From Dehalococcoidia bacterium (lineage in GTDB: Bacteria > Chloroflexota > Dehalococcoidia > Lucifugimonadales > UBA3495), in the NCBI GenBank assembly GCA_965204715.1, contig OZ242009.1, positions 244,893-308,892 of the forward strand: a stretch of 64,000 nt of DNA. Reading direction: 5' to 3'. The notes below the pieces were generated by a model. It searched no databases. It was not told where the DNA came from and worked only from the letters and a program-made list of their open reading frames with translations. Below, in pieces: positions 2,807 to 16,256 of this stretch (within the stretch, counting starts at the first letter, position 1; every line of letters starts with the position of its first letter). The position numbers and the translations under genes are program-made.

Positions 2807-3973
2807 ATGACGGTCCAGAGAGCCGCTACAACCCAAGACGAACTGCTCAGCGAGTGGCACAAGAAAGCGTGGCTCAAGCGATTGTTCCTGCCTGGGGATT
2901 TCCTGGAGCAGGTCAGCATGGACGGGGCAGAAAACATGGTATGTCATAAGACCACTATGGAATATCTGTCTATGATCGACCAGGTAGAGACAAAGACCGT
3001 CAAAGTTTCTGAATCCCGCAAGCACTCAACCGACGTGGATTACCGCCCGCAGGAATTCAAGGACGAGATCCTCAAAATCATTACCAACGCTGCGAAAGTC
3101 AAATGCGACAGTTGCTCCGGGAGAGGGAGGAGTACCTGCGGGAAGTGTTCCGGAGATGGGAAAGTCACCTGTGGCAAGTGTTCCGGGAGAGGCGAAGTCA
3201 ACTGCGATACCACAAAGAATTGCGGATCCTGCGGGGGAAGCGGCAAACGCCGGGAGAATTGCGGGTCCTGCGGCGGCAGAGGCAAACATGAGAGGAAATG
3301 CGGGACTTGCGGCGGCGGCGGCGTTACTGGCCGCGGCGGCAGCGGCGCCGGGCCGTGCTACTCTTGCGGCGGGAGCGGCAAACATAGCAAGGATTGCGGC
3401 AGTTGCAGCGGGGGTAAAGTCACCAGGAATTGCGGCCGTTGCAGAGGAGGCAAAGTGACTTGCGACCGGTGCGGCGGGAGGGGCAGCGTTGGTTGTAACC
3501 GCTGCAACAGGAGCGGCATTCTGACCTGCAACCGGTGCAACGGGAGCGGCAGCGTGGTCTGCGGCACATGCGATGGGGCAGGCGAGCTGGTGAAGGGGGA
3601 TATCATCACCAGGAAATTTTCATGCTCAACGGACCTGACGTACCGGTTATCCGGGCTGGCCGCCAATGAGTTCAAGAACGGGCTGGCGGCCAAACACTTC
3701 GAGTCCGTAACCGGGGACCTGGTGCAAGAGGAATTACAGACCCCCGCCAGCAACGATATTGTGTTACAGCGGCAGACTGTCCACTCCTATGACGTGCTTT
3801 CGCACGGCTACTCCTACAACGGTGCGGAGTTCCGGTTAAACCGGATAACCACCGGCAACGGCTTGAAGTACGTCGCCTTGGGTATGCCCTTTTCCAAGAC
3901 CAGGACTGCCATAGCTGGCGCTGTATTCTTTGTTGCTGCGGCGGCAGTCTCAGCCCTATTGATATTTCTCTAA
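2807..3973 (+). CDS. tail-anchored protein with an array of 13 CxxC (DnaJ cysteine-rich-domain-like CxxCxGxG) zinc-finger motifs
   Basis: GGAGGA lies 6 nt before ATG 2807. Residues ~100-265 contain CDSC, CGKC x2, CGSC x3, CGTC x2, CYSC, CGRC, CDRC and CNRC x2, mostly followed by xGxG. The C-terminus is the hydrophobic AIAGAVFFVAAAAVSALLIFL. Confidence 0.75.
   Translation: MTVQRAATTQDELLSEWHKKAWLKRLFLPGDFLEQVSMDGAENMVCHKTTMEYLSMIDQVETKTVKVSESRKHSTDVDYRPQEFKDEILKIITNAAKVKCDSCSGRGRSTCGKCSGDGKVTCGKCSGRGEVNCDTTKNCGSCGGSGKRRENCGSCGGRGKHERKCGTCGGGGVTGRGGSGAGPCYSCGGSGKHSKDCGSCSGGKVTRNCGRCRGGKVTCDRCGGRGSVGCNRCNRSGILTCNRCNGSGSVVCGTCDGAGELVKGDIITRKFSCSTDLTYRLSGLAANEFKNGLAAKHFESVTGDLVQEELQTPASNDIVLQRQTVHSYDVLSHGYSYNGAEFRLNRITTGNGLKYVALGMPFSKTRTAIAGAVFFVAAAAVSALLIFL
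3218..3334 (+). repeat. three tandem 39-nt coding repeats inside the zinc-finger array
   Basis: Units begin at 3218, 3257 and 3296 (aattgcggatcctgcgggggaagcggcaaacgccgggag / aattgcgggtcctgcggcggcagaggcaaacatgagagg / aaatgcgggacttgcggcggc...). They encode NCGSCGGSGKRRE, NCGSCGGRGKHER and KCGTCGGGG. Confidence 0.7.
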
Positions 3974-4010
3974 GCGGCGTCCGGCGCTTTGGCGAAATGA
4001 GGCCTAAAGG

Positions 4011-4041
4011 TTGACATTAAGATTGTGAAACACCCTATGAT
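4011..4041 (+). promoter_or_regulatory. promoter candidate in front of the vWA/PP2C/kinase gene string
   Basis: TTGACA (4011-4016), 19-nt spacer (long), TATGAT (4036-4041). Lies about 90 nt upstream of ATG 4130. Confidence 0.35.
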
Positions 4042-4129
4042 ATGAACGCCTCAGCGCCTGAATGCTCTTGATGAGTCCTTCAGGCCCAATCCATCTGGAC
4101 TATCGAAATCTGAAAGGAGCGAAACAGCC

Positions 4130-4996
4130 ATGCCATATACTGCCGACATCAGCCGGGCCAACCCCGCCTGCTTCCTTTTCCTGATCGACCAGTCGGGATC
4201 GATGGAACAGGCATTGTCCGGCCAGCCCGGTTTTCGCAAGATGGACCAGGCGGCAATCGCGCTCAACGGCATCCTCAACGCCCTGTCACTGCGCTGCTCC
4301 CAGGGCATGGAGGTGCGAGACTACTTCCACATCGGCGTAATCGGCTACAATACCGACAGCTCCGGAAATCCAACGGTGCGAAGCGCCCTCCAGGGCACGT
4401 CCCCCGATTCGCCCTTCCTCCTGGTCAGCCAGGTGGTTGACCTCGCAGAAGTCGAAGACCGGCAGGTCAAGGAACCCGACGGCGCGGGCGGCCTGGTGGA
4501 AGTCACCCGGAAAGTGCCCGTCTGGTTCCACCCCCACGCCCAGTACGGCACCCCCATGTGCGAGGCTTTGGGGGATGCCGCCGCAGCCTTGCGGACCTGG
4601 ACCGGCGAATATCCCGACTCCTTCCCGCCCATAGTGATCAACATCTCCGACGGCATGGCCACCGACGGAGACCCGCAGGCCCCGGCAGACGAGATAATGG
4701 GGCTCGGCACCTCCGACGGCAACACCCTGCTCTTCAACATCCACCTTTCCGAAACGGCGGCAGTGCCCATCCAGTACCCCGACAGTGAGGATGGCCTGCC
4801 CGACGAGCACTCCAGGACGCTGTTCCGCATGTCCTCGGTGCTGCCTGAGTCCAGCCGGAGCATGGCCGTCACCCTGGACCTGTCGGTGAACGAGAACTCC
4901 CGCGGCTTCGTCTTCAACGCCAACATGGAGTCGCTGGTGCAATTCCTGGACATCGGCACCCGAGGGCCTTCCAACGCGCCTTCCGATCTGCACTGA
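4130..4996 (+). CDS. TerY-like von Willebrand factor A (vWA) domain protein, paralog 1
   Basis: N-terminus MPYTADISRANPACFLFLIDQSGSM carries the MIDAS DxSxS motif. The downstream MIDAS Thr (YGTPMCEAL) and Asp (NISDGMATDGD) are also present. No signal peptide. Confidence 0.8.
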   Translation: MPYTADISRANPACFLFLIDQSGSMEQALSGQPGFRKMDQAAIALNGILNALSLRCSQGMEVRDYFHIGVIGYNTDSSGNPTVRSALQGTSPDSPFLLVSQVVDLAEVEDRQVKEPDGAGGLVEVTRKVPVWFHPHAQYGTPMCEALGDAAAALRTWTGEYPDSFPPIVINISDGMATDGDPQAPADEIMGLGTSDGNTLLFNIHLSETAAVPIQYPDSEDGLPDEHSRTLFRMSSVLPESSRSMAVTLDLSVNENSRGFVFNANMESLVQFLDIGTRGPSNAPSDLH

Positions 4997-5055
4997 CAGC
5001 CAGGGGCAGGGGCGCCCTGCCAGCCACCAGCCACCGGAGAGGAGGAGAGCCGGAC

Positions 5056-6003
5056 ATGCCATACACCGCCGACATCAGCCGGGCCAATCCCAGTTGCTTC
5101 ATGTTCCTGGTTGACCAGTCCTACTCCATGGAGGGAGCGCTGGCAGGCCAGCCGGGGCAGCACAAAATGAACGCTGCCGCCGACACGATAAACCGAGTCC
5201 TGGAGAGTCTCACCCTGCGCTGTTCCCAGGGGATGGACGTTCGTGACTACTTCGACATCGGTATCCTGGGCTACGGCTGTGAACAGAAGGCGGAATACGA
5301 CCCGAATCAAGTCTACGGTTACCTGGATGCAAACGAGGTGTATCACGAAATACCACATGCCCAGTTGGACAAAGACAACCTCGTCGAATGCGTAGTAATC
5401 AGCGCCCTTCCTGGGACCACCCTGGAACAGCCCTTCCTGCCCATCAGCAGGGTGGTGGAAGTGGCCGAAATGGTGGACCGGCAGGTGAGAGAGAGCGACG
5501 GCAGAGGAGGAACAACCGAAGTAACCCGCAAGATGCCCGTCTGGTTACGGCCTCATGCCGGGGCGCAAACCCCGATGTGCGAAGCTCTGGCCCACGCCGG
5601 ACAGGCCATCGAACGATGGATCTCCCGGCACCCCGACTCCTTCCCCCCTGCCGTTATCAACATCAGCGACGGCGAGGCCAACGACGGCGACCCTGAGCCT
5701 GTGGCCCAGCAGATCATGGGCCTGCAAACGTCCGATGGCAACGTACTGATGTACAACTGCCACCTGTCCGAGTTGGCGGCAATGCCCATCCAATACCCCG
5801 ACCGGGAGGACGGCCTGCCCGACCAGTTCGCCCGGAGCCTGTTCCGCATGTCGTCGGTACTGCCCGATTCCATCCGGGGACTGGCGGCAACCCTGGCCCT
5901 GCCGGTCAGGGACAACTCCCGCGGCTTCGTCTTCAACGCCGACATGACTGCCCTGGTGCAATTCCTCGACATCGGCACCCGCGGCCCTTCCAACCTGCAT
6001 TAG
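5056..6003 (+). CDS. TerY-like vWA domain protein, paralog 2 (with ~30-aa insertion)
   Basis: MPYTADISRANPSCFMFLVDQSYSM (DxSxS), AQTPMCEAL and NISDGEANDGD. Collinear with paralog 1 except for an extra segment, EQKAEYDPNQVYGYLDANEVYHEIPHAQLDKDNLVECVV. Confidence 0.8.
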   Translation: MPYTADISRANPSCFMFLVDQSYSMEGALAGQPGQHKMNAAADTINRVLESLTLRCSQGMDVRDYFDIGILGYGCEQKAEYDPNQVYGYLDANEVYHEIPHAQLDKDNLVECVVISALPGTTLEQPFLPISRVVEVAEMVDRQVRESDGRGGTTEVTRKMPVWLRPHAGAQTPMCEALAHAGQAIERWISRHPDSFPPAVINISDGEANDGDPEPVAQQIMGLQTSDGNVLMYNCHLSELAAMPIQYPDREDGLPDQFARSLFRMSSVLPDSIRGLAATLALPVRDNSRGFVFNADMTALVQFLDIGTRGPSNLH

Positions 6004-6078
6004 GGACGCGGGTCCTCTGCACGGCGGAGGGCCGGAGCAGCCGTGGAGGATCCACGTTTCAGAAATTGAGAGGCATCT

Positions 6079-6852
6079 ATGGAACTGCGAGGTCTCAGAA
6101 CACTCTGGATGGCCAAAGCCGGCAATCGCCCGGAAGAATGTGAAGACTCCTACGCCTTCGACCCTCTGGCCTGCCGCGTGGGTTCAATGGGCGTTAATAC
6201 CGCCAGGATCGCGGTTTCCGATGGGGCCAGCGAGTCGGCCTTTGCCCGGAGCTGGTCGCAGGTCCTGAGCCAATCATTTATCGACAGGCCCCTGGACCTG
6301 TCAGGCATCGGCCAGGACGCCCTGGAAAGCTGGCTCGCTCCAGGCCAGCAGGCATGGGACGCAACAGTGCCCTGGGACCGCATCCCCTGGCACGGGGAGG
6401 CCAAGGCGCGGGCCGGAGCGCTGGCGACACTGCTCGGTCTGACCATCTCCCCGGCGGGCGCGGGGGCCCTGTCCTGGCAAGCAGTTGCCATAGGCGACTG
6501 CTGCCTCTTCATAGTCCGCGACGGCAAGTTGCTCCGGTCCTTCCCCCTCGACGATGCCGCCCAGTTCAACAACACCCCGGTCCTGATTTGCAGCAACCCG
6601 GCCAATAACCGGGGCCTTGGCGGTCACGTCCGGCAGGAACGGGGGGACTGCGCCCCCGGAGACCTGTTCCTCCTGGCCTCCGACGCCCTGGCCTGCTGGA
6701 TGCTGGAGGACCACGCCCAGGGCGGCAGCCCCTGGGACACCCTGCTGGCCTTGGACTCCCACCAGGCTTGGGAAGAATGGGTCAACACCCAGAGGCAAGA
6801 ACGCATAATGAAGAACGACGACACCACGCTGGTTGTTGTAGAGGTGGAGTAA
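6079..6852 (+). CDS. PP2C-family Ser/Thr protein phosphatase
   Basis: Acidic metal-binding motifs appear in PP2C order: PEECEDSY, AVSDGASES, ASDAL and a C-terminal KNDDTTLVVVEV. Its position between the vWA and kinase genes matches TerY-P triads. Confidence 0.7.
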   Translation: MELRGLRTLWMAKAGNRPEECEDSYAFDPLACRVGSMGVNTARIAVSDGASESAFARSWSQVLSQSFIDRPLDLSGIGQDALESWLAPGQQAWDATVPWDRIPWHGEAKARAGALATLLGLTISPAGAGALSWQAVAIGDCCLFIVRDGKLLRSFPLDDAAQFNNTPVLICSNPANNRGLGGHVRQERGDCAPGDLFLLASDALACWMLEDHAQGGSPWDTLLALDSHQAWEEWVNTQRQERIMKNDDTTLVVVEVE

Positions 6853-6873
6853 CAGAAAAAGTGAGGTGAGCTT

Positions 6874-8274
6874 ATGGCCTGGCCGCCGCCTGTTGACTTC
6901 AGGGACGCCGTCCAGAACCCCCAGAATTGCTTCGAGGTCCAGGATCTGGCCCAGGGGGCCACTGCGGTCACCCGCATGGGCACCCCGGTAGTCTGGTCGG
7001 GCAACTTCGCCTGCGTGTTCAAGGTGGCCACCCCCGGCGGCGACGTGGCCGTGCGCTGCTTCACCCGGGAGGTCAGGGACCAGCAGCAGCGCTACGGCCA
7101 TTTGAGCGAATACCTCGCCGGAGTCAGGCCGGGGTTCCTCGTGGGCTTTGAGTACGTGGAGCGGGGGATCAGGGTCAAGGGCGACTGGTATCCCATAGTC
7201 AGGATGGAGTGGGCCGAGGGAGACCGGCTGGACAAGTTCATCGAGGGACATCTAAACAGGCCGGACGTCATCATGGGTCTGGCCGCCAGTTGGCGCGGCG
7301 TAAACGGCGGGCTCCGGGGCCTTGAAATCGCCCACAACGACCTTCAGCACGGCAACGTCATGGTCCAGGAGCAGGGCGGCCTCCACCTCGTCGACTACGA
7401 CGGCATATACCTGCCCCGGTTCGAGGGAGAGCCCAGCCCCGAGATCGGCCACCGGCACTACCAGCACCCCAGGAGGACAGACCGGGACTACCATGCGGAG
7501 ATCGACAACTTCCCTTCCCTGGTCGTCTACCTGACCCTGATGGCCCTGGGCGTAGACCCCCAACTCTGGGACAGGTTCTACAACCAGGAAAACATGCTCT
7601 TCACCAGGGATGACTTCGCCGACCCCGCCAACTCCGATTGCTTCAAAGCCTTGAAGTCCAGCCCCGACGCCTACGTCGCCGAGCTGACCGGCATACTCGA
7701 AGGGTTCTGCTCCCAACCTGTGGAACAGGTGCCCCGGCTGGAGAACGTCCTGCGCGGCGTTACGGCCTCTCCGCCAACAGCGTCCACGTCCGCACCGGCA
7801 CCCGCGCCTGCTCCCGCTCCGGCGCCACCCGCACCCGCGCCCGGCGCTCCCACGGCTCCTCCATCATCAGCGCCTGCACCTCCACCTGCGCCACCTATCC
7901 CGCCGTCGTCATGGCCCGCGCCTGCACCGCCACCTCCGCCAGCGCCAGCGCCGCCTGTGCCCCCGTCGTCACGGCCCGCGCCACAACCGCCGCCCGTTCC
8001 CGGCGCTCCGGCGCCGCCCCCGCTTCCGCGGCCACGGGTCCCGTCAGCTTCGTCGCCAGGTCCGGGGGGACTCTTCGAAATGGCGAGAGAGTCCAACAAG
8101 CCGATATTTATCCTGGCTGGTCTCTGGCTCTTCTGCGCCATGCTGGGATCGTTTCTGCCCTTCTTCGGGGGGTTCGGCCTCATAGTCTTACTGGCGCTGA
8201 TTTGCGCCATCTGCTACAGAATACGGCCGGTACGTGAATGGATTGGCGACCGTTTAAGCAATCTCAGGAGATGA
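6874..8274 (+). CDS. Ser/Thr protein kinase-like protein 1: kinase domain + Pro-rich linker + C-terminal TM hairpin
   Basis: Catalytic loop [13 protein letters not shown] and DFG-equivalent [10 protein letters not shown]. The beta3 position reads VAVRCF (Arg, not Lys). About 90 aa of the linker are PA/PP-rich. The C-terminus PIFILAGLWLFCAMLGSFLPFFGGFGLIVLLALICAICYRIR forms two TM helices. Confidence 0.75.
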   Translation: MAWPPPVDFRDAVQNPQNCFEVQDLAQGATAVTRMGTPVVWSGNFACVFKVATPGGDVAVRCFTREVRDQQQRYGHLSEYLAGVRPGFLVGFEYVERGIRVKGDWYPIVRMEWAEGDRLDKFIEGHLNRPDVIMGLAASWRGVNGGLRGLEIAHNDLQHGNVMVQEQGGLHLVDYDGIYLPRFEGEPSPEIGHRHYQHPRRTDRDYHAEIDNFPSLVVYLTLMALGVDPQLWDRFYNQENMLFTRDDFADPANSDCFKALKSSPDAYVAELTGILEGFCSQPVEQVPRLENVLRGVTASPPTASTSAPAPAPAPAPAPPAPAPGAPTAPPSSAPAPPPAPPIPPSSWPAPAPPPPPAPAPPVPPSSRPAPQPPPVPGAPAPPPLPRPRVPSASSPGPGGLFEMARESNKPIFILAGLWLFCAMLGSFLPFFGGFGLIVLLALICAICYRIRPVREWIGDRLSNLRR

Positions 8275-8366
8275 CCAGCCCCGCGAACGGCGTCGAGTCA
8301 GACCGGCCATCGGGAACGCGGTCCCCCGGCGAGGGGGATGGCGTTCCGGAGAAAGCGAGGTGAGCC

Positions 8367-9689
8367 ATGGCACAGCCAACCAGGTCTCCAGCGCCCGCAT
8401 CAGCGCCTGCGTCGAGTAGTGGAGAAGACCTCGGCAACCAGTTCCTCCTGAGCGGCAAGTTCATAGCTGCCCTGTTTGTGACCGCCCTCATACTCGCTGC
8501 GCTATCTTTCTTCGCCGACCTATTCGGGCCGATTTCCCTCATAGTCCTTGCGTTGGCGATTTGCGCTCTCTGTTACAGGTTGAGACTCGCCATGAGGTTC
8601 CTGATATGCGCCCTGGTGCTGGCCGGTATAAGCCTTTACGTGGCCAGACCCATGCTGTCGGAGACCTTCTACGATGTGGGTTTGAAAGTCCTGAGTTCCT
8701 ACGGCGACCCCGGTGAGAGAGCAATCTGGCCCGACCCGGCCAGGAGGGACCTGCCGGACACGGTCGTCACAGAAGTCCCATACGGCGACGGCTTGCAGGG
8801 CTTCGACACCACCACCGCGGAAGGCAGGGTTGGGGCGATCTCGGGCCTGAAGTATGAAACGGGCGCAAGATACCTGGGGTACGCCGCTGCCGCACTACTG
8901 TTTACCGGGCTGGTCATTGCCTGCCTCGGCACAGCCTTGAGGCTGCTGGGAGTTACCAGGGAGCCGGCAGCGGCACCGGCATCCACGTCCAGCGCGTCGG
9001 GACTGTTCAGCAAGATTGGTCGAGACGTCAGGGTGGGGCTGGCCATGGTGGCCATCGGGTGGGTATTGTTCCTGGTCGGCGGGCTTCCGCAAGATATCTT
9101 CAATGGGTCACTCCCAGGGGGCGTGGACTATCTCAGAGGGGAGGGCATAAATTCGGAAGCCGCGCATCTATTCTGGCCAATGATGATACTCGATAAAGTC
9201 CAGTATATGGGTGGCGCACTCATTTGGATGGGGATTGCCTTCTCCTTCTTCCCATTGGTTAGAAGAGCATGGAGATGGGCCTGTTCAAAACATGACCACT
9301 ATTACAGAAAACTGGGATTTGCATTGGTGGCGTTCGGGACCCCAGTAAGTGTTTTCTCTCTGAATGTTCTGCCGGCGTTGATCATCCCAACGGTCCGGGA
9401 AACCGCGGCCCCGCCCGGCGATTTCATGTTTCTTTCCAGCTTCACCTACTACCCAGAGTGGCTCAGGACAAGTATGTCAATCATGGACATTCTGGGGCCG
9501 GCATGCATAATCGCCGGGATTCTCTTTATCCTGTTCGGAGAAAACACTCTGCCCTGGATTTGTAAACTTATAGCAAAATACTTTAGCTCCTGGTTCGCCT
9601 CGCCCGGTCGTCCGTCAAGTTCTGGTTCCCCCAGCAGCAGCGAAAGAGACAGCGGGCCGCCTACCCTATTTGACGGCAGGCCACGCTGA
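8367..9689 (+). CDS. polytopic membrane protein of unknown family, paralog P1 (~8 TM, Ser-rich C-terminal tail)
   Basis: 440 aa with a Pro/Ser-rich N-terminus and about 8 hydrophobic helices. Conserved blocks shared with P2 include ETFYDVGLKVLSSYGDP, LFWPMMILDKVQYMGGALIWMG, IPTVRE and WLRTSMSI. The tail is PGRPSSSGSPSSSERDSG. Confidence 0.6.
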   Translation: MAQPTRSPAPASAPASSSGEDLGNQFLLSGKFIAALFVTALILAALSFFADLFGPISLIVLALAICALCYRLRLAMRFLICALVLAGISLYVARPMLSETFYDVGLKVLSSYGDPGERAIWPDPARRDLPDTVVTEVPYGDGLQGFDTTTAEGRVGAISGLKYETGARYLGYAAAALLFTGLVIACLGTALRLLGVTREPAAAPASTSSASGLFSKIGRDVRVGLAMVAIGWVLFLVGGLPQDIFNGSLPGGVDYLRGEGINSEAAHLFWPMMILDKVQYMGGALIWMGIAFSFFPLVRRAWRWACSKHDHYYRKLGFALVAFGTPVSVFSLNVLPALIIPTVRETAAPPGDFMFLSSFTYYPEWLRTSMSIMDILGPACIIAGILFILFGENTLPWICKLIAKYFSSWFASPGRPSSSGSPSSSERDSGPPTLFDGRPR

Positions 9690-9714
9690 TCATAGGCGTT
9701 CTCGGAGGTAAGCT

Positions 9715-10947
9715 ATGGACCAGCCAACTAACCCGCCGACCCCCGCACCGACGCCTTCACCCGCATCACCACCTGAGACCGAGTCCGTTACGTTTTGGCC
9801 TCGCGGACTAATCTGTATCGGGGTCGGGATCATACTTATGATATTGGCCCCGATTGTGCAGGCGATCACGGGAAGTCTAGTCCTCCTATTCGTTAGCCTG
9901 ATAATCTTCGCCGTGGGATACTGCGTTGTCTCTTTCGATTTTAGACTGGTCCCCAGGCTGTTGGTGTTGGCCGTTATGGGAATTGCAATCATCTCTTTTC
10001 TGTCCACATTATTCCTGGGGGAAGTCTTCTATGATGCGGTGCTTAAAGTCCTGAATTCCTATACCGACCCGGTGCAAAGGGAGTTTTTGCCAGACCCAGA
10101 GCAAGCAGAGGCGGCGAAAGACATGCCCTTTGGTGTCGAGTCCAAATCTGAAATGGGTTCTCAACTCCTGGAGTTCACCGGGTACATATCCTTTGCGCTC
10201 GGAGTCATCGTTACTTGTCTTGGCGCATTGCTCAAATTTGCAGGCAAGTTTCGCGGGGTAATCGGAGTTGGACTGTCAATGATAATTATTGGCCTGTTCC
10301 TGCTTCTCACCCCCGCGCTTCCGCAGTACATCCTGGATGAGGTTCTCAGAGAAGGCACAGGTTATTCGAATGGGGCAATCAGCCCTAACTCCCCGGTCCC
10401 GTGGTTGTTCTGGCCGCTTTTCGCCCTTGACAAGGCATCGTACGTAGGCGGCGTAATCATGTGGCTTGGGGTATTCATCCTCATATTGGGCCTGATCGAC
10501 CGTCTGATCAACAGAAGGGGAGAGGATGCCGAGGTCAAGAGGCTGGGCCTGGCGTTATTCGCAATTGGAACACTCGGAGGCATCTTCCATTTTTATGTTC
10601 TGGAGGATTTCCTTATTCCAACTGCCCGGGAAATCGGAATTGCCGCGATACCGGGATGGCTCAGAACATCCATAAGCATCCTGGGCTACACGTGGTGGAT
10701 ACCCACATTGCTTGGGACCATATTCTTCATCGCAGGAATCAGGACCATGCGCAAGATTGGCTCTGCCGCAGAAAAAACCCTGGGCGCCATACATGACCAT
10801 ATTCCCGAACCATCTCCATCAAGCGGCGCGTCTTCCGAGAGTAGCAGCAGCAACGAGTCACCAGTCCCTGGAGGCGCCATCCAGGAAGCCAACAGAGCCG
10901 CACGTCGAGGCAACAGGGGCAGACGTGGCGGCGGTAGAGGCAGATAA
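9715..10947 (+). CDS. polytopic membrane protein of unknown family, paralog P2 (Ser-rich then Arg/Gly-rich tail)
   Basis: 410 aa. Blocks shared with P1 include EVFYDAVLKVLNSYTDP, LFWPLFALDKASYVGGVIMWLG, IPTARE and WLRTSISI. The tail is PSPSSGASSESSSSNESP...RRGNRGRRGGGRGR. Confidence 0.6.
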   Translation: MDQPTNPPTPAPTPSPASPPETESVTFWPRGLICIGVGIILMILAPIVQAITGSLVLLFVSLIIFAVGYCVVSFDFRLVPRLLVLAVMGIAIISFLSTLFLGEVFYDAVLKVLNSYTDPVQREFLPDPEQAEAAKDMPFGVESKSEMGSQLLEFTGYISFALGVIVTCLGALLKFAGKFRGVIGVGLSMIIIGLFLLLTPALPQYILDEVLREGTGYSNGAISPNSPVPWLFWPLFALDKASYVGGVIMWLGVFILILGLIDRLINRRGEDAEVKRLGLALFAIGTLGGIFHFYVLEDFLIPTAREIGIAAIPGWLRTSISILGYTWWIPTLLGTIFFIAGIRTMRKIGSAAEKTLGAIHDHIPEPSPSSGASSESSSSNESPVPGGAIQEANRAARRGNRGRRGGGRGR

Positions 10948-11082
10948 CCACATGACACAGTCGAGACCGACCCCGGCTCCTGTGCTGTGGACCCAGGAAC
11001 TTGCAATCAGCAGCCATAAGGCTACTCTAAGCGTTGTGGCATTCCAGCAGCACACGGGAGTCCCAGACCCAGGAGGTTGAAC

Positions 11083-12396
11083 ATGGCCTGGCCCGCGCCC
11101 ACTGATTTCAGGGATGCCGTCCAGAACCCCGAGAACTGCTTCGAGGTCCAGGACCTCGCCCAGGGAACGGCTTCGGTTACGCGCATGGGAACGCCGATGG
11201 TCTTCTCGGGCAACTTCGCCTGCGTGTTCAGGCTGGAAACCCCTGGCGGCAACGTGGCCGTGCGCTGCTTCACCCGGGAGGTGAAGGACCAGCAGGAACG
11301 CTACGGCCACCTCAGCTCCTACCTCGCCGGAGTCAGACCCGAGTTCCTCGTGGGTTTCGAGTACGTTGAACGGGGCATAAAGGTCAAGGGCGACTGGTAT
11401 CCCATCGTCAGGATGGACTGGGCCGAGGGGGACCGGCTGGACAAGTTCATTGGAGACCATCTGGACAGGCCGGACATCTTCATGGACCTGGCCGCCAGGT
11501 GGCGGGGCGTGAACGGCACCCTGCGAGGGCTGGGAATCGCCCACAACGACCTGCAGCACGGGAACGTTATGGTCCAGGAGCAGGGCGCGCTCCGCCTGGT
11601 CGACTACGACGGCATCTACCTGCCCCGGTTCGAGGGGGAACCCAGCCCCGAGATCGGCCACCGGCACTACCAGCACCCGAAGCGGACTTCCCAGAACTAC
11701 TATGAGGGCATAGACAACTTCCCCTCCCTGGTGGTCTACCTGACCTTCCTGGCGCTGCGGGCTGACCCTCAACTATGGGACAGGTTCTACAACCAGGAAA
11801 ACATGCTCTTTACCAGGGAAGACTTTGCCAACCCCGCCAACTCGGACTGCTTCAAGGCACTGAAGAGCAGCCCCGATGCCAACGTTGCCGAATTGACCGC
11901 CGTGCTAGAGGGACTCTGCTTTCAGCCCGTGGACCAGGTCCCTACCCTGGAAGAGGCTCTTCGCGGCGTCACCGTTGCCCCGTCAAGCGCGCCAGCCCCT
12001 CCGTCCCCGTCGAATGCGCCTGCTCCGCCCGCGCCGGCTCCCGCACCTGCCCCTCTGCCGTCCGCGCCCGCGCCGTCGGCGGGGTCTTCGTACCGGGACC
12101 TGCTCCAGTCCGGCCAGGCTGCCGCACCCGCATCACCCCCACCCGCGCCTCCATCATCAGCGCCCGCTCCGCCGCCGACGCCCACGCCGCCGCCTGCTCC
12201 CGCGGGCCCGGTGCTGGTTTGCCCCGGCTGCAACCGGACGAGCTCCACGGAGCATATATACTGCGGCTACGAAGACTGCGCCGCCGTGCTCCTTCCAGGG
12301 AGAAAGACCTGCAACGGCTGCAATTCCTCGATTCCGCTCAACGCCTACTTCTGCCCCGACTGCGGTGTCAATCTGGCGGCACCCGCCTCTATATGA
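11083..12396 (+). CDS. Ser/Thr protein kinase-like protein 2: kinase domain + Pro-rich linker + C-terminal double zinc ribbon
   Basis: AGGAGG lies 6 nt before ATG 11083. About 83% identical to kinase 1 over ~299 aa by manual alignment, with the same [13 protein letters not shown] and VAVRCF. The C-terminus is CPGCN...C..EDC...CNGCN...CPDCG. Confidence 0.75.
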
Positions 12397-13484
12397 AGTG
12401 CCCAACCTGCCAGTCCGTAGTACCAAGCACGGTCAGGTTCTGCGCTTATTGCGGGGCCGGGATTCTGGCGGCTCCGCCGTCTCCCGCTGCCCGACGGTCT
12501 GGGTTGTTCGGTTTCCTCTGGGCGCACAAGGCGCTGAGTTTCTTCTTCGGTCTCGGGTCCTTGCTGCTGATTGTGGCGCTGTTCTACGCGATGAATACGG
12601 GAGATGAGGAACCGGCAATGGCCTTGGCGCTGCCGCCCCCGACTGCCACCGCCGAGCCTGCCCCTGAGCCGGCAATTATACCTACGGAGACACCGGTCCC
12701 GACGGTTGGGCCGACAGAGGCTCCCGTGCCGGCAGTTGTGCCAACGGATACTCCGGCGCCGACAGCCACGCCCATTCCTACGCCCGAGCCGACGGAGACA
12801 CCGGTCCCGACAGTAACCCCAACCCCGAGTCCGACACCCATCCCAGCCGCGACTCCGACGCCTACGCCGGTCCCAACGGCGACGCTGATTCCGACAAATA
12901 CGCCGAGGCCGACGGCGACACCAGTCCCGACGGATACGCCTCAGCCAACGCCAACACTTCGTCCAACAGCCACCCCGACGCCCACGCCGCGTCCAACGCC
13001 CACACAGGTCCCGTGGAAGGACCACACCGGTAAGGGCGATAAGTGGGGCTACACAGTGGAAATCCCTGGAAACTGGAGGTCTGCGCGGGGCGGAAAGCAA
13101 GCAGAGTTGCGCTCTTCTGATGGCCGGGCTACCCTTACAATTAGCGTCAAGGACTATCCCGAAAAACTACCGCCGCAGCAGTTCGCCGAGGAGCACCGGG
13201 CCTCGCTGATCGCCAAATATGCCTATGATGCAAATTTTTTCAACATCCTGGGCTTCCGGGGAGTCCCGCTGGACGGCCACCAGTGGTTCCGGTTGTCGTG
13301 GCGCTTGCAGCAGAAGTCCGACTCATGTGTGCTGGACATCACCGACCTGGTCTCCCGTTCCCGGAACTTCCCCGGCTGGGACCAGGGGTATATCCTGAGC
13401 TTCCGGGTGTGCGATGAACATCTTCCCGCACATCTGAAGGACCGCAAGCGGATCCTGGACAGTTTCCGGGAACTCGCTCCATGA
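12393..13484 (+). CDS. zinc-ribbon / single-TM / Pro-Thr-rich linker / C-terminal globular-domain protein
   Basis: ATG 12393 overlaps the kinase-2 stop (ATGA). Sequence [21 protein letters not shown], then TM helix [21 protein letters not shown], then ~120 aa of PT-rich linker, then ~150 aa of non-repetitive C-terminus. The upstream part of track ORF 11775..13484 is a shadow frame. Confidence 0.65.
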
Positions 13485-13535
13485 GGCCGGAGCAGCCCTG
13501 TCCGGAAAGTTGCCCGATGACCCCATTCATCCTGT

Positions 13536-13564
13536 TTGACACCCGTTGCCATTCGTGATACGTT
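13536..13564 (+). promoter_or_regulatory. promoter candidate for the T-box leader / ilvB
   Basis: TTGACA (13536-13541), 17-nt spacer, TACGTT (13559-13564), preceded by TGa (extended -10 like). It sits just upstream of T-box stem I. Confidence 0.5.
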
Positions 13565-13690
13565 TCGCAATAGCAAAGGCTGTGATGGAGACGAGTAGGC
13601 AGGGGTAGGCGGTTAGCGAGCCTGGTACGGTGAAAGCAGGCGCGCCGAGCTTGTCCGAAAATCCCTCCGGAGCCGCCAGCCGAACCCCCG

Positions 13691-13715
13691 GTCAGTCGGC
13701 TACGGACTACAATAC
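13691..13715 (+). repeat. copy D of the 25-nt repeat (gtcagtcggctacggactacaatac), embedded in the T-box leader
   Basis: Matches the three copies at 59604, 59702 and 59806 at about 21-22 of 25 positions. It is flanked by complementary ccccgg/ccgggg, so it would sit in a hairpin loop. Confidence 0.6.
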
Positions 13716-13841
13716 ACGCCGGGGTATGTAAGCCGGGCCGGGCTCGCCGCCCGTTACCAACGGCGGGGCATGTTGGTGTCCTTATCGAGAGGTCTCCGCC
13801 CACGCGGGGGCAATTAGGGTGGTAACGCGGGAACTCGTTGA

Positions 13842-13871
13842 GTCTCGTCCCTAGAGGGGCGGGGCTTTTTT
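13842..13871 (+). terminator. intrinsic terminator of the T-box leader
   Basis: gtctcgtccc / taga / ggggcggggc gives a 10 bp stem (3 G-U pairs), followed by tttttt. Confidence 0.75.
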
Positions 13872-13950
13872 ATTTGCCCTGAATCAAGACCGTTGCGAGG
13901 CAACGCCCCTTCTCCCGGTAAGGCGCGCATAAGGGAACACTCTGGAGGTT

Positions 13951-15648
13951 ATGGTGAAACTCAAAGGCGCTGATATCATGTGCGAAGCTCTGCTCCGGGA
14001 AGGGGTTGACGTGGTTTTCGGCTACCCCGGCGGAGCAATCCTGCCCTTCTATGACGCCCTGTGGGGCCACCCGCAGCTCCGGCACATCCTGGTCCGGCAC
14101 GAGCAGGCCGCGGCCCACGCCGCCGACGGCTACGCCCGGGTAACCGGCAAGGCAGGCGTCTGCCTGGCGACCTCCGGGCCTGGGGCCACCAACCTGGTCA
14201 CCGGCATCATGGGGGCCAAGGCCGATTCCGTGCCGATGGTGGCCATCACCGGGCAGGTGGCCCGCACTGCATTGGGGTCGGAGGCGTTCCAGGAATGCGA
14301 CACCTGCTCCATCACCGCCCCATGCACCAAGAAGACCTACATGGTCATGTCGGCCCGGGACCTGGCTCCTACTATCCGGGAGGCATTCCAGGTCGCCCAG
14401 GAGGGAAGACCCGGCCCGGTGCTCATCGACGTGCCCCGTGACGTACAGTTGGAGGAGGCCGAGCTCGAGTTTTCCGACATGGACCGGGGCCGCAACGCTC
14501 CCCTGTCCAGGGAAACATTGCAGCACGTCTCCGAAGCGGCCAGGTTGATTAACGATGCCGAGCGTCCGGTCATCATCAGCGGGCACGGCATCCTCGCCTC
14601 GGGGGCCCACGAGGAACTGCGGGAACTGGCCGAGACCACAGGAATCCCGGTAATCACCACCCTGCTGGGACTGAGCGGGTTCCCCGGCAATCACCCCCTC
14701 AGCCTGGGGATGCTGGGGATGCACGGCATGTACTGGGCCAACCTGGCCGTGGACCAGGCCGACCTGGTCATCGGGTTGGCGATGCGCTTCGACGACCGGG
14801 TCACCGGCAGGACCTCGGGCTTCGCTCCCCACGCCCGGATCATTCACCTGGACATCGAGCCGACCCAGGTAGGCCGCAACGTTCCGGTGGAGGTCCCGCT
14901 GGTGGGGGACGCCAAGAAGGTGCTGTCGGCCCTGACGCCGCTGGTGAAGTACAAAGAACGCTCTGAGTGGATGGGCTACATCGACACCCTGCGCCGGGAG
15001 CACCCGTCTCTGGCCATCCCCAACGGCCACAGGTTGCAGGTGCAGCACGTTCTGCGAGACATGAACGGACTGCTGGAGGAAGACGACCGCACGGTGGTGG
15101 TCACCGGGGTAGGGCAGCACCAGATGTGGGCCGCCCAGTTCCTGTCCTTCAACCGCTCCAATACCTTCGTCTCGTCGGGCGGGCTGGGGGCAATGGGATT
15201 CGAGCTTCCCGCGGCGATGGGAGTGCAGGCAGGCAAGCCGGATATTCCGGTCTGGAGCATCGCTGGCGACGGGGGATTCCAGATGGTCTCCCAGGAGTTG
15301 GCCACGGTCGCCGAAGAGAATCTGCCGGTGAAGATCGCCCTGTTCAACAACGGCTACCTGGGAATGGTGCGCCAGTGGCAGGAGATGTTCTTCGAGAAGC
15401 ACTTGAAGGCAGTCCCGATCTCCGGCCCCGATTATGTCAAGCTGTCAGAGGCGTATGGAGTCCCGGCGCTCCGGGTCAGCGACCGGGAGGAGGTGATGCC
15501 GGCCCTGCGGCAGGCCCAGGCCCACGACGGCCCCTTCCTGATTGAGTTCATCGTGGACCCGGACGCCAACGTGTACCCGATGGTCCCGCCAGGCGGTTCC
15601 CTGGCCGACACTATCGAAGACCCGCTGGTGACCAACGGGTCCGGGTAA
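13951..15648 (+). CDS. ilvB: acetolactate synthase (acetohydroxyacid synthase) large subunit, TPP-dependent
   Basis: GGAGG precedes ATG 13951. MVKLKGADIMCEALLREGVDVVFGYPGGAILPFYDAL...HEQAAAHAADGYARVTGK...GDGGFQM. The T-box leader supports a biosynthetic role. No ilvN-like gene follows. Confidence 0.85.
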   Translation: MVKLKGADIMCEALLREGVDVVFGYPGGAILPFYDALWGHPQLRHILVRHEQAAAHAADGYARVTGKAGVCLATSGPGATNLVTGIMGAKADSVPMVAITGQVARTALGSEAFQECDTCSITAPCTKKTYMVMSARDLAPTIREAFQVAQEGRPGPVLIDVPRDVQLEEAELEFSDMDRGRNAPLSRETLQHVSEAARLINDAERPVIISGHGILASGAHEELRELAETTGIPVITTLLGLSGFPGNHPLSLGMLGMHGMYWANLAVDQADLVIGLAMRFDDRVTGRTSGFAPHARIIHLDIEPTQVGRNVPVEVPLVGDAKKVLSALTPLVKYKERSEWMGYIDTLRREHPSLAIPNGHRLQVQHVLRDMNGLLEEDDRTVVVTGVGQHQMWAAQFLSFNRSNTFVSSGGLGAMGFELPAAMGVQAGKPDIPVWSIAGDGGFQMVSQELATVAEENLPVKIALFNNGYLGMVRQWQEMFFEKHLKAVPISGPDYVKLSEAYGVPALRVSDREEVMPALRQAQAHDGPFLIEFIVDPDANVYPMVPPGGSLADTIEDPLVTNGSG

Positions 15649-15776
15649 CGGGCATGTCCGGGGCCGCCGACGGCTTCTTGCGGCTCGCCGGTGAATCGCC
15701 TAGACTTGCAGCAAAACGGCCGTGTCGTCGATCAGCGCACGCGCGCCATCGCGCAGGTGACTAATCGGAGGTAGCA

Positions 15777-16172
15777 GTGGAGAAGGTAACTATACAAGAG
15801 GCCTCGCGGCGGCTGAACCTGTCCCAGGCCGACATCCGGGAGTCGATCCGCAACGGGGAACTGAAGGCCACGCGGGAGCCCAGCCCGTCCGGGCGCCGCT
15901 GGATGGTGGAGATGCCCGAGGACGGCTGGGAGCACCGGTTCACGTCGTCGCTGAGAAACCTGGCCCAGTCCATGACCCCCTGGTGGTGGTCCAACGCGCA
16001 GAACACCGGGTTCGTCCACTACGTGCAGGACCTGGGAATCGAGGAGATCGAACCTCTATACCTGTGCGGACTGAAGGGGGACAACGTCTGGGACGCCGCG
16101 GACCACACCATGGAGCAGCGTTGCCCGGAGTGCGCCGCCATCGCCAAGGAACGGGACCTGCCCCACGCCTGA
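15777..16172 (+). CDS. small HTH (excisionase/MerR-like) DNA-binding protein, hypothetical
   Basis: GTG start after GGAGG. N-terminus VTIQEASRRLNLSQADIRESIRNGELKA resembles excisionase-family HTH domains. The C-terminus carries a CPEC motif. Confidence 0.45.
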   Translation: MEKVTIQEASRRLNLSQADIRESIRNGELKATREPSPSGRRWMVEMPEDGWEHRFTSSLRNLAQSMTPWWWSNAQNTGFVHYVQDLGIEEIEPLYLCGLKGDNVWDAADHTMEQRCPECAAIAKERDLPHA

Positions 16173-16256
16173 CCCGCGCCGGTCTATCCACGAAGGACGC
16201 GGAGTTTCACTGACAATAAAGTCTTTGCGTCCGTTTCGCCGAAATAGGACGGGGGT

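Follow-up and report, generated by a model that had tools for sequence, protein, structure and literature searches.

A tightly packed cluster of eight co-oriented genes occupies positions 4130–13484 of the + strand in the DNA analyzed here, a window of 64,000 nucleotides (nt) from an uncultured Dehalococcoidia bacterium (assembly GCA_965204715.1, contig OZ242009.1, positions 244,893 to 308,892) known solely from metagenomes, mainly those of sponges and corals. In order, the cluster encodes two TerY-like vWA proteins, a PP2C-type phosphatase, a Ser/Thr kinase (K1), two related membrane proteins (P1 and P2), a second kinase (K2), and a zinc-ribbon membrane protein. Judged by PADLOC matches to TerY, PP2C, and the Ser/Thr kinase, the locus is a TerY-P-type module or operon. 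K1 ends in a transmembrane (TM) hairpin that resembles the N-terminal TM hairpin of P1, the product of the next gene. Here, we analyze this resemblance, which connects a TerY-P kinase with a very rare family of polytopic membrane proteins. All features described below lie on the + strand.

K1 (6874–8274, 466 aa) consists of a Ser/Thr kinase domain from residue 1 to ~300, a Pro-rich linker spanning residues ~300–400, the TM hairpin, and a basic tail, and it ends in ...FGLIVLLALICAICYRIRPVREWIGDRLSNLRR. The hairpin (residues 407–451, 8092–8226) is made up of TM1 (~8104–8166), a GG turn, and TM2 (~8173–8217), with the end CAICYRIR at 8203–8226; the protein stops 15 residues past TM2. P1 (8367–9689, 440 aa, ~8 TM helices in an AlphaFold2 model) contains ...ISLIVLALAICALCYRLRLAMR in its N-terminal part, where a hairpin of residues 29–73 (8451–8585) ends in CALCYRLR (8562–8585). 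These two sites are the only occurrences of CxxCYRxR in coding frames, with one further match in a non-coding frame. The original prediction, based on the sequence alone, had noticed 11 identities over 16 residues between the two hairpins and a Pro/Ser-rich segment preceding each; both observations are correct. It had ended the similarity at position 8560, which is too short, since the P1 hairpin reaches 25 nt further.

Aligned over its whole length, the hairpin comprises 45 ungapped residues, 21 of them identical between K1 and P1. The local BLOSUM62 score of this pair is 83, a value reached by none of 5000 composition-matched shuffles (mean 26.9, sd 5.3, maximum 58; z = 10.6). P2 (9715–10947, 410 aa) is a diverged paralogue with 34% identity to P1 and 400 bits in a hidden Markov model (HMM) search. 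The original prediction had described its architecture as the same but more diverged. The similarity of P1 to P2 is weakly significant (z = 4.1 against shuffles), and the score of K1 against P2, 28, lies within the shuffled background (26±5). To compare with natural TM segments, an HMM was built from 21 P-family sequences excluding K1 and run against 771 sequences, namely all fetched kinase homologues and the open reading frames (ORFs) of at least 60 aa in the window. K1 and three orthologues matched with 15.5–23.6 bits (E 1e-4 to 1e-6), aligning to model positions ~11–78, i.e., the N-terminal hairpin of the model. The other kinase homologues, dozens of them with other TM anchors, and the other window ORFs did not exceed 5 bits. 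The model thus separates K1 orthologues, which carry the same hairpin, from kinases with other anchors. The similarity between the K1 and P1 hairpins is therefore confirmed, far above chance.

The arrangement of the two genes is also reproducible. The succession of K1 stop codon, 92-nt spacer, and P1 start is found again in assemblies L001, L002, L006, and L011, and contigs of three further public sequencing runs span the same junction, which is therefore not an assembly artefact. A single gene split into K1 and P1 by a sequencing error was considered and rejected: each of the two carries its own hairpin, and independent assemblies and sequencing runs show the stop and spacer again.

Within the hairpin, the CxxC pair invites a reading as a metal or redox motif, which we set aside: the two Cys are not conserved together, the first being absent from one K1 orthologue and several P proteins and the second often replaced by S, A, or P. 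Two further features of K1 were recorded. Its Pro-rich linker (7926–7977) shows in-frame length polymorphisms, with indels of 3, 9, and 12 nt among strains of different sequencing runs. In its kinase domain, the segment VAVRCFT (7050–7070) has an Arg at the expected β3 lysine position, assigned by eye and not via alignment to a kinase model, and the same holds for all homologues examined; a conserved Lys lies one strand earlier (CVFKV), and HxDLxxxN and DYDG (DFG-like) are intact. This suggests a non-canonical arrangement of the ATP site.

The P-type domain is a very rare, uncharacterized family of ~8 TM helices. Searches of Pfam, NCBIfam, and PADLOC assigned neither P1 nor P2 to a family. When 1.84 billion cluster representatives were searched exhaustively with a profile, only 38 relatives emerged, of which 25 had E < 1e-10; word-indexed searches with P1 or the family alignment had returned 6–8 matches, and the exhaustive HMM search was needed for all 38. 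A contig scan with a narrow alignment matched three Dehalococcoidia metagenome-assembled genomes and no others, and a scan of IMG/VR found no P genes. The AlphaFold2 model of P1, built from a 23-sequence alignment (pLDDT 78, pTM 0.67), shows ~8 long helices, a small β-hairpin insert at residues 132–147, and three disordered Ser/Thr-rich segments (the N-tail, 203–209, and 412–440), while the N-terminal hairpin is modeled with a pLDDT of 84–88. A Foldseek comparison of this model with the PDB and BFVD found no analogue (best E 0.6, TM <=0.25).

Hydrophobicity and charge place both termini of P1, the YRLRLAMR turn after TM2, and the loops at 199–219 and 300–315 on the cytoplasmic side. The N-tail, YRLRLAMR turn, 199–219 loop, and C-tail are cytoplasmic by the positive-inside rule, rich in Ser/Thr, and low in pLDDT; in P2, the C-terminal tail is Ser-rich and RGG-rich. 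The most conserved motifs of the family map to the outer face, namely FYDxG..LNSxTDP..R.FWPDP, Y.RG.GI...LFWP..LDK, IPT.RE, and YPGWL, and P1 and P2 possess all four. The hairpin end, a small residue followed by C-x-x-[CSA]-[FY]-[RK]-x-[RK], is a feature of the P family that K1 shares. From its sequence, K1 carries a fragment of the P domain and is not a member of the family, as the remaining ~six helices and their motifs are missing.

Genes of the P family are mosaic. P0003, P0004, and P0005 are 80–92% identical to P1 over the first ~200 alignment columns and 10–56% identical beyond, and the switch point is a disordered cytoplasmic loop. This mosaicism points to frequent recombination at the locus. 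The P paralogues compared, including the L001 gene at 8434–9789, also have swapped tails (RGG-rich versus ...FDGRPR). All P-type cassettes also share a near-identical ribosome-binding context, AAGCGAGGTRAGCC-ATG, followed by an M-x-QPT start. It is found at 8350–8366 and 9697–9714 in the window, at 7763–7779, 8417–8433, and 9984–10000 in L001, and at 5791–5807 in L010. An apparently unrelated 200-aa membrane protein in L001 and L011 has the same 5' context and starts with M(N/H)QPTGP, and this shared 5' end may serve as a site of recombination or translational coupling. On the N-terminal side, the P domain also occurs behind a DnaJ-type J domain (P0135), with partial copies behind zinc ribbons (P0155, P0157, P0161); such varied partners indicate that the family can exchange its cytoplasmic N-terminal module.

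Kinases of the K1 family vary at their C-terminal end. Among ~120 K1 homologues, the kinase domain and Pro-rich linker are common to all and the C-terminal module varies freely, comprising DZR zinc ribbons, a single TM helix, two other multi-TM modules, ADP-ribosylglycohydrolase, and leucine-rich repeats (LRR). Within this set, the hairpin is limited to K1 orthologues, and a scan of JGI metagenomes with a K1-tail alignment and a degenerate DNA pattern for CYRIRP[VI]REW found no further hairpin-bearing kinases. Four proteins of 771–795 aa (P0055, P0110, P0128, and P0132), together with a fragment (P0134), have a complete P domain fused to a kinase of the K1 family; P0110c, for instance, matches P1 over its full length with an E of 4e-33. 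In L006, the gene following K1 (11560–13149) encodes P0129 (529 aa), in which 47 kinase N-terminal residues and a Pro-rich linker precede a full P domain; by its domain content, this is a decayed kinase–P fusion that has lost the kinase core. The P-type domain thus appears as a recurrent partner of TerY-P-type kinases, either as a neighboring gene or fused whole to the kinase C-terminus, and the fusions speak for a joint action of kinase and P domain. Two full fusion genes were examined with their surroundings (L004, 10001–12361; L005, 2633–4948). The gene tables, in which several ORFs are unannotated, list no TerY or PP2C neighbors there. Both surroundings are rich in genes for transposase, resolvase, integrase, PIN, NERD, ankyrin, and LRR proteins, which suggests mobile or defence-island contexts.

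The kinase domains themselves fall into distinct groups. K1 and K2 are 83% identical in this domain. K1/K2-type kinases are 73–78% identical to kinases not fused to a P domain, such as P0019 (with a zinc ribbon) and P0014, but only 50–58% identical to the fused kinases. Among the latter, P0055, P0110, and P0128 group together at 68–70% identity, with P0132 more distant. The K1 hairpins of all four lineages score 66–89 against P1-type hairpins and 20–64 against other P subtypes, except for P0002 (70), itself a 75%-identical homologue of P1; against the hairpins of fused kinases, the scores are just 22–36.

The copy of the hairpin in K1 is old, not recent. It is present in all four sampled lineages, and K1 and P1 hairpin DNA is 53% identical, with about saturated synonymous differences (proportion of synonymous differences, pS, ~0.49) and a longest identical run of 10 nt. 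The same identity and run length led us to reject recent gene conversion between the two hairpins. Among K1 orthologues, the ratio of nonsynonymous to synonymous differences (pN/pS) is 0.36–0.52 for the hairpin and 0.12–0.24 for the kinase core; the hairpin is under purifying selection, looser than that on the core.

We consider it likely, with a probability of roughly 75%, that the K1 anchor is a diverged copy of TM1–TM2 of the P domain, acquired when a paralogue of K2 recombined with a P1-type gene, and that the P proteins have a role as membrane partners. The original prediction had suggested an anchor gained by partial duplication of a P-type gene. In substance, this idea is well supported: the hairpin is homologous to TM1–TM2 of the P domain, and the closeness to the P1 clade, the kinase–P fusions, the gene joining a kinase remnant to a P domain, and the paralogy of K1 and K2 add to it. 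Because the kinase domain of K1 is 83% identical to that of K2 and yet its hairpin is specifically of the P1 type, K1 is most likely a recent paralogue of K2 in which the beginning of a P1-type gene has taken the place of the C-terminal module. In the simplest history, a K2-like kinase paralogue would have recombined with a P1-type gene, with the kinase-side breakpoint probably in the low-complexity Pro/Ser-rich linker, and the resulting kinase–P fusion would then have been truncated after TM2. Several points weigh against this account. The direction and order of events are not provable, and K1 could descend from an old fusion and not from a zinc-ribbon kinase. The copy is old, and its DNA shows no breakpoints. 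Certain P genes stand alone or lie beside resolvases without TerY-P neighbors (L009, L010), so the function of P is not strictly tied to a kinase, and the family is known from just a few metagenome-assembled genomes.

Other explanations of the hairpin were weighed against capture from a P1-type gene. The resemblance might be due to chance or composition, as between any two hydrophobic helices that end in a positive-inside stop, the more so as each segment comprises only 45 aa, with Leu, Ile, Ala, and Val abundant, and DNA identity is just 53%. Yet the shuffled sequences never reach the observed score, the K1-free HMM selects K1 orthologues alone among TM-anchored kinase homologues and window ORFs, and the kinase–P fusions support the link independently, so that this explanation is already effectively refuted. 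A gene fission has more in its favor. It holds that one ancestral kinase–P fusion broke apart into K1 and P1, the hairpin being duplicated in the process, and it denies that a zinc-ribbon kinase captured a P fragment. Fused kinase–P genes do exist, a decayed fusion sits in the same locus of L006, and P1 follows K1 directly, in the same orientation and only 92 nt away. However, the K1 kinase domain is 73–86% identical to K2 and other non-P kinases and far less similar to any fused kinase, while the hairpins of the fused kinases are among the least K1-like. Fission would also have to account for 224 additional nt (tail, spacer, and a new N-terminus) that separate the hairpin copies and bear no similarity to P sequence. 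We regard fission as improbable.

A further proposal, the second option of the original prediction, concerns what the hairpin does and adds to the capture of a P fragment without excluding it. The K1 hairpin might pack against, or replace, the TM1–TM2 hairpin in P1 oligomers and thereby dock the kinase onto P1. Consistent with this, the fusions place kinase and P domain in one complex, and the hairpin is confidently modeled within P1. Among K1 orthologues, it is 72–90% identical with a pN/pS below 1, and in two of three comparisons, it is better conserved than the adjacent linker. In L006, both K1 (IAAVCYRIR) and its neighbor P0129 (VIALCFKLK) lack the first Cys, which is a single coincidence. 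In the same lineage, however, the K1 hairpin scores 66–75 against P1-type hairpins of other genomes and 48 against that of its own neighbor; remaining P1-like beside a diverged neighbor, it gives no signal of co-evolution in a comparison of n = 4 lineages. The background-level score between K1 and P2 and the lack of joint conservation of the Cys pair also speak against a dedicated interface, and we regard docking as a tentative idea that is rather doubtful at present.

Taking the captured anchor as the working explanation, the hairpin would enter and leave the membrane on the cytoplasmic side, ending in the YRIR positive stop and the basic tail, and the ~100-residue Pro-rich tether would hold the kinase at the inner membrane face, beside P1 and P2. 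The Ser/Thr-rich disordered cytoplasmic tails of P1 and P2 would be likely substrates of K1 and PP2C, and K2 would be directed elsewhere by its zinc ribbon. P proteins may thus be membrane partners of K1 and PP2C, as sensor and/or substrate, a proposal made mainly because whole-domain kinase–P fusions exist; the conserved outer-face motifs would suggest the sensor role.

The 92-nt spacer between K1 and P1 (8275–8366) contains a GC-rich nested stem-loop, also part of the original prediction, which is real and spans 8313–8347. Its 7+7 bp nested stem has a folding free energy (dG) of -31.2 kcal/mol (z = -5.2 against shuffles), and a GAGG ribosome-binding site follows it. In L002-type strains, the structure persists despite a single T>C substitution that breaks a pair and an insertion of 1 nt; it is absent from the spacers downstream of K1 in L001 and L006, which are unrelated in sequence. 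Comparison of the spacers thus indicates a strain-specific element, confined to the closest strains, and lends no support to a conserved role. A scan of 3500–14500 found no Rfam match to it, and the window holds no second copy. As a candidate intrinsic (Rho-independent) terminator it was rejected: the GC-rich stem is present, but the sequence after it, CGGAGAAAGCGAGG, contains no T run or U tract, and the terminator scan did not report it. It may affect mRNA stability or the relative expression of K1 and P1.

The remaining genes of the cluster include two TerY-like vWA paralogues. The first (4130–4996, 288 aa) matches PADLOC TerY over its full length (E 6.9e-84), and the second (5056–6003, 315 aa), which has an internal insertion, matches both PADLOC TerY (E 2.9e-81) and Pfam VWA (E 1.5e-5). 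The PP2C-type phosphatase (6079–6852, 257 aa) is identified by PADLOC PP2C (E 4.9e-35), with Pfam PP2C_2 at the cut-off. K1 matches PADLOC STK_OB over 1–299 of 562 positions (E 1.4e-71) as well as Pfam Pkinase. K2 (11077–12396, 439 aa) matches STK_OB over 1–301 of 562 (E 2.1e-72) and has a C-terminal double zinc ribbon (Pfam DZR). By this kinase-part match, both are Ser/Thr kinases of the TerY-P clade. The last gene of the conserved cluster (12393–13484, 363 aa), syntenic in L001, L002, and L006, begins within the last 4 nt of K2, overlapping its stop. In its translation, a zinc ribbon and a TM helix are followed by a long spacer rich in Pro and Thr and by a conserved C-terminal domain without a family match, and the L006 orthologue (14524–16245) has an LRR block inserted in the spacer. 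Beyond the cluster, a T-box leader at 13573–13855 (+) precedes a TPP-enzyme (acetolactate-synthase-like) gene at 13951–15648; its score of 82 bits (E 5e-17) is just below the Rfam gathering score of 93. A terminator-like stem at 13840–13867, the terminator arm of this T-box, is the sole convincing terminator match of the region.

The TerY-P triad was defined as a TerY-like vWA protein and a PP2C phosphatase together with a Ser/Thr kinase that bears a zinc ribbon at its C-terminus (Anantharaman, Iyer & Aravind 2012; definitions taken from PMC10542128). The locus reproduces the order and common strand of TerY (here in two copies), PP2C, and kinase, and taken as one operon, it corresponds to the triad through K2, the kinase with the zinc ribbon. 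It differs in having a second kinase, K1, with a TM hairpin in place of the zinc ribbon and two P-type membrane genes between the kinases; we know of no membrane partner in the described triad. A TerY-P system was also reportedly presented by Gao et al. in 2020 as an anti-phage defence system. The locus matches its PADLOC profiles for TerY, PP2C, and STK_OB strongly (E 1e-35 to 1e-84), but the two kinases match only the kinase half of STK_OB and both lack the OB fold. K1 has neither a zinc ribbon nor an OB fold, STK_OB positions 300–562 being unmatched and the C-terminus being the TM hairpin. What is new is thus a form of TerY-P with an uncharacterized membrane partner family; the TerY-P system itself is known.

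Receptor-type Hanks kinases such as PknB and PrkC consist of a cytoplasmic kinase, a linker, a single TM helix, and an extracellular sensor with PASTA repeats. Similarly, in the fused proteins P0055, P0110, P0128, and P0132, a Pro-rich linker joins a cytoplasmic kinase to a membrane domain whose conserved motifs face outward, but their membrane part is polytopic with ~8 TM helices, and their kinase belongs to the TerY-P clade. K1 keeps only the first hairpin, the rest being a separate gene. As in Rosetta-stone (gene fusion) inference, genes that are neighbors here form a single polypeptide elsewhere. The mosaic P paralogues, which break at disordered loops, resemble domain accretion via low-complexity linkers, although K1 retains a sub-domain fragment of two out of ~8 helices.

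TerY-P modules are found widely, and anti-phage activity is proven for some of them. A more speculative reading, to which we give little weight, is that the P domain is the outward-facing sensor of an unrecognized membrane branch of TerY-P signaling or defence, a receptor kinase that would occur fused or split. In the split form, the K1 hairpin would be an adapter, with the retained TM1–TM2 slotting into P1/P2 assemblies. Envelope or phage signals sensed by P would lead to phosphorylation of the Ser-rich P tails, reset by PP2C and read out by the TerY vWA proteins.

Gene fusion, neighborhood, and a sub-domain in common thus link a TerY-P kinase to a novel polytopic family without a known fold. 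This makes the P family a concrete candidate partner, as sensor or substrate, for one branch of TerY-P, so far in few uncultured genomes. The locus would also be a clean natural example of a soluble signaling enzyme gaining a membrane anchor from a neighboring membrane protein, probably by capturing its first helical hairpin via recombination in low-complexity linkers, with intermediates still visible in sister genomes.

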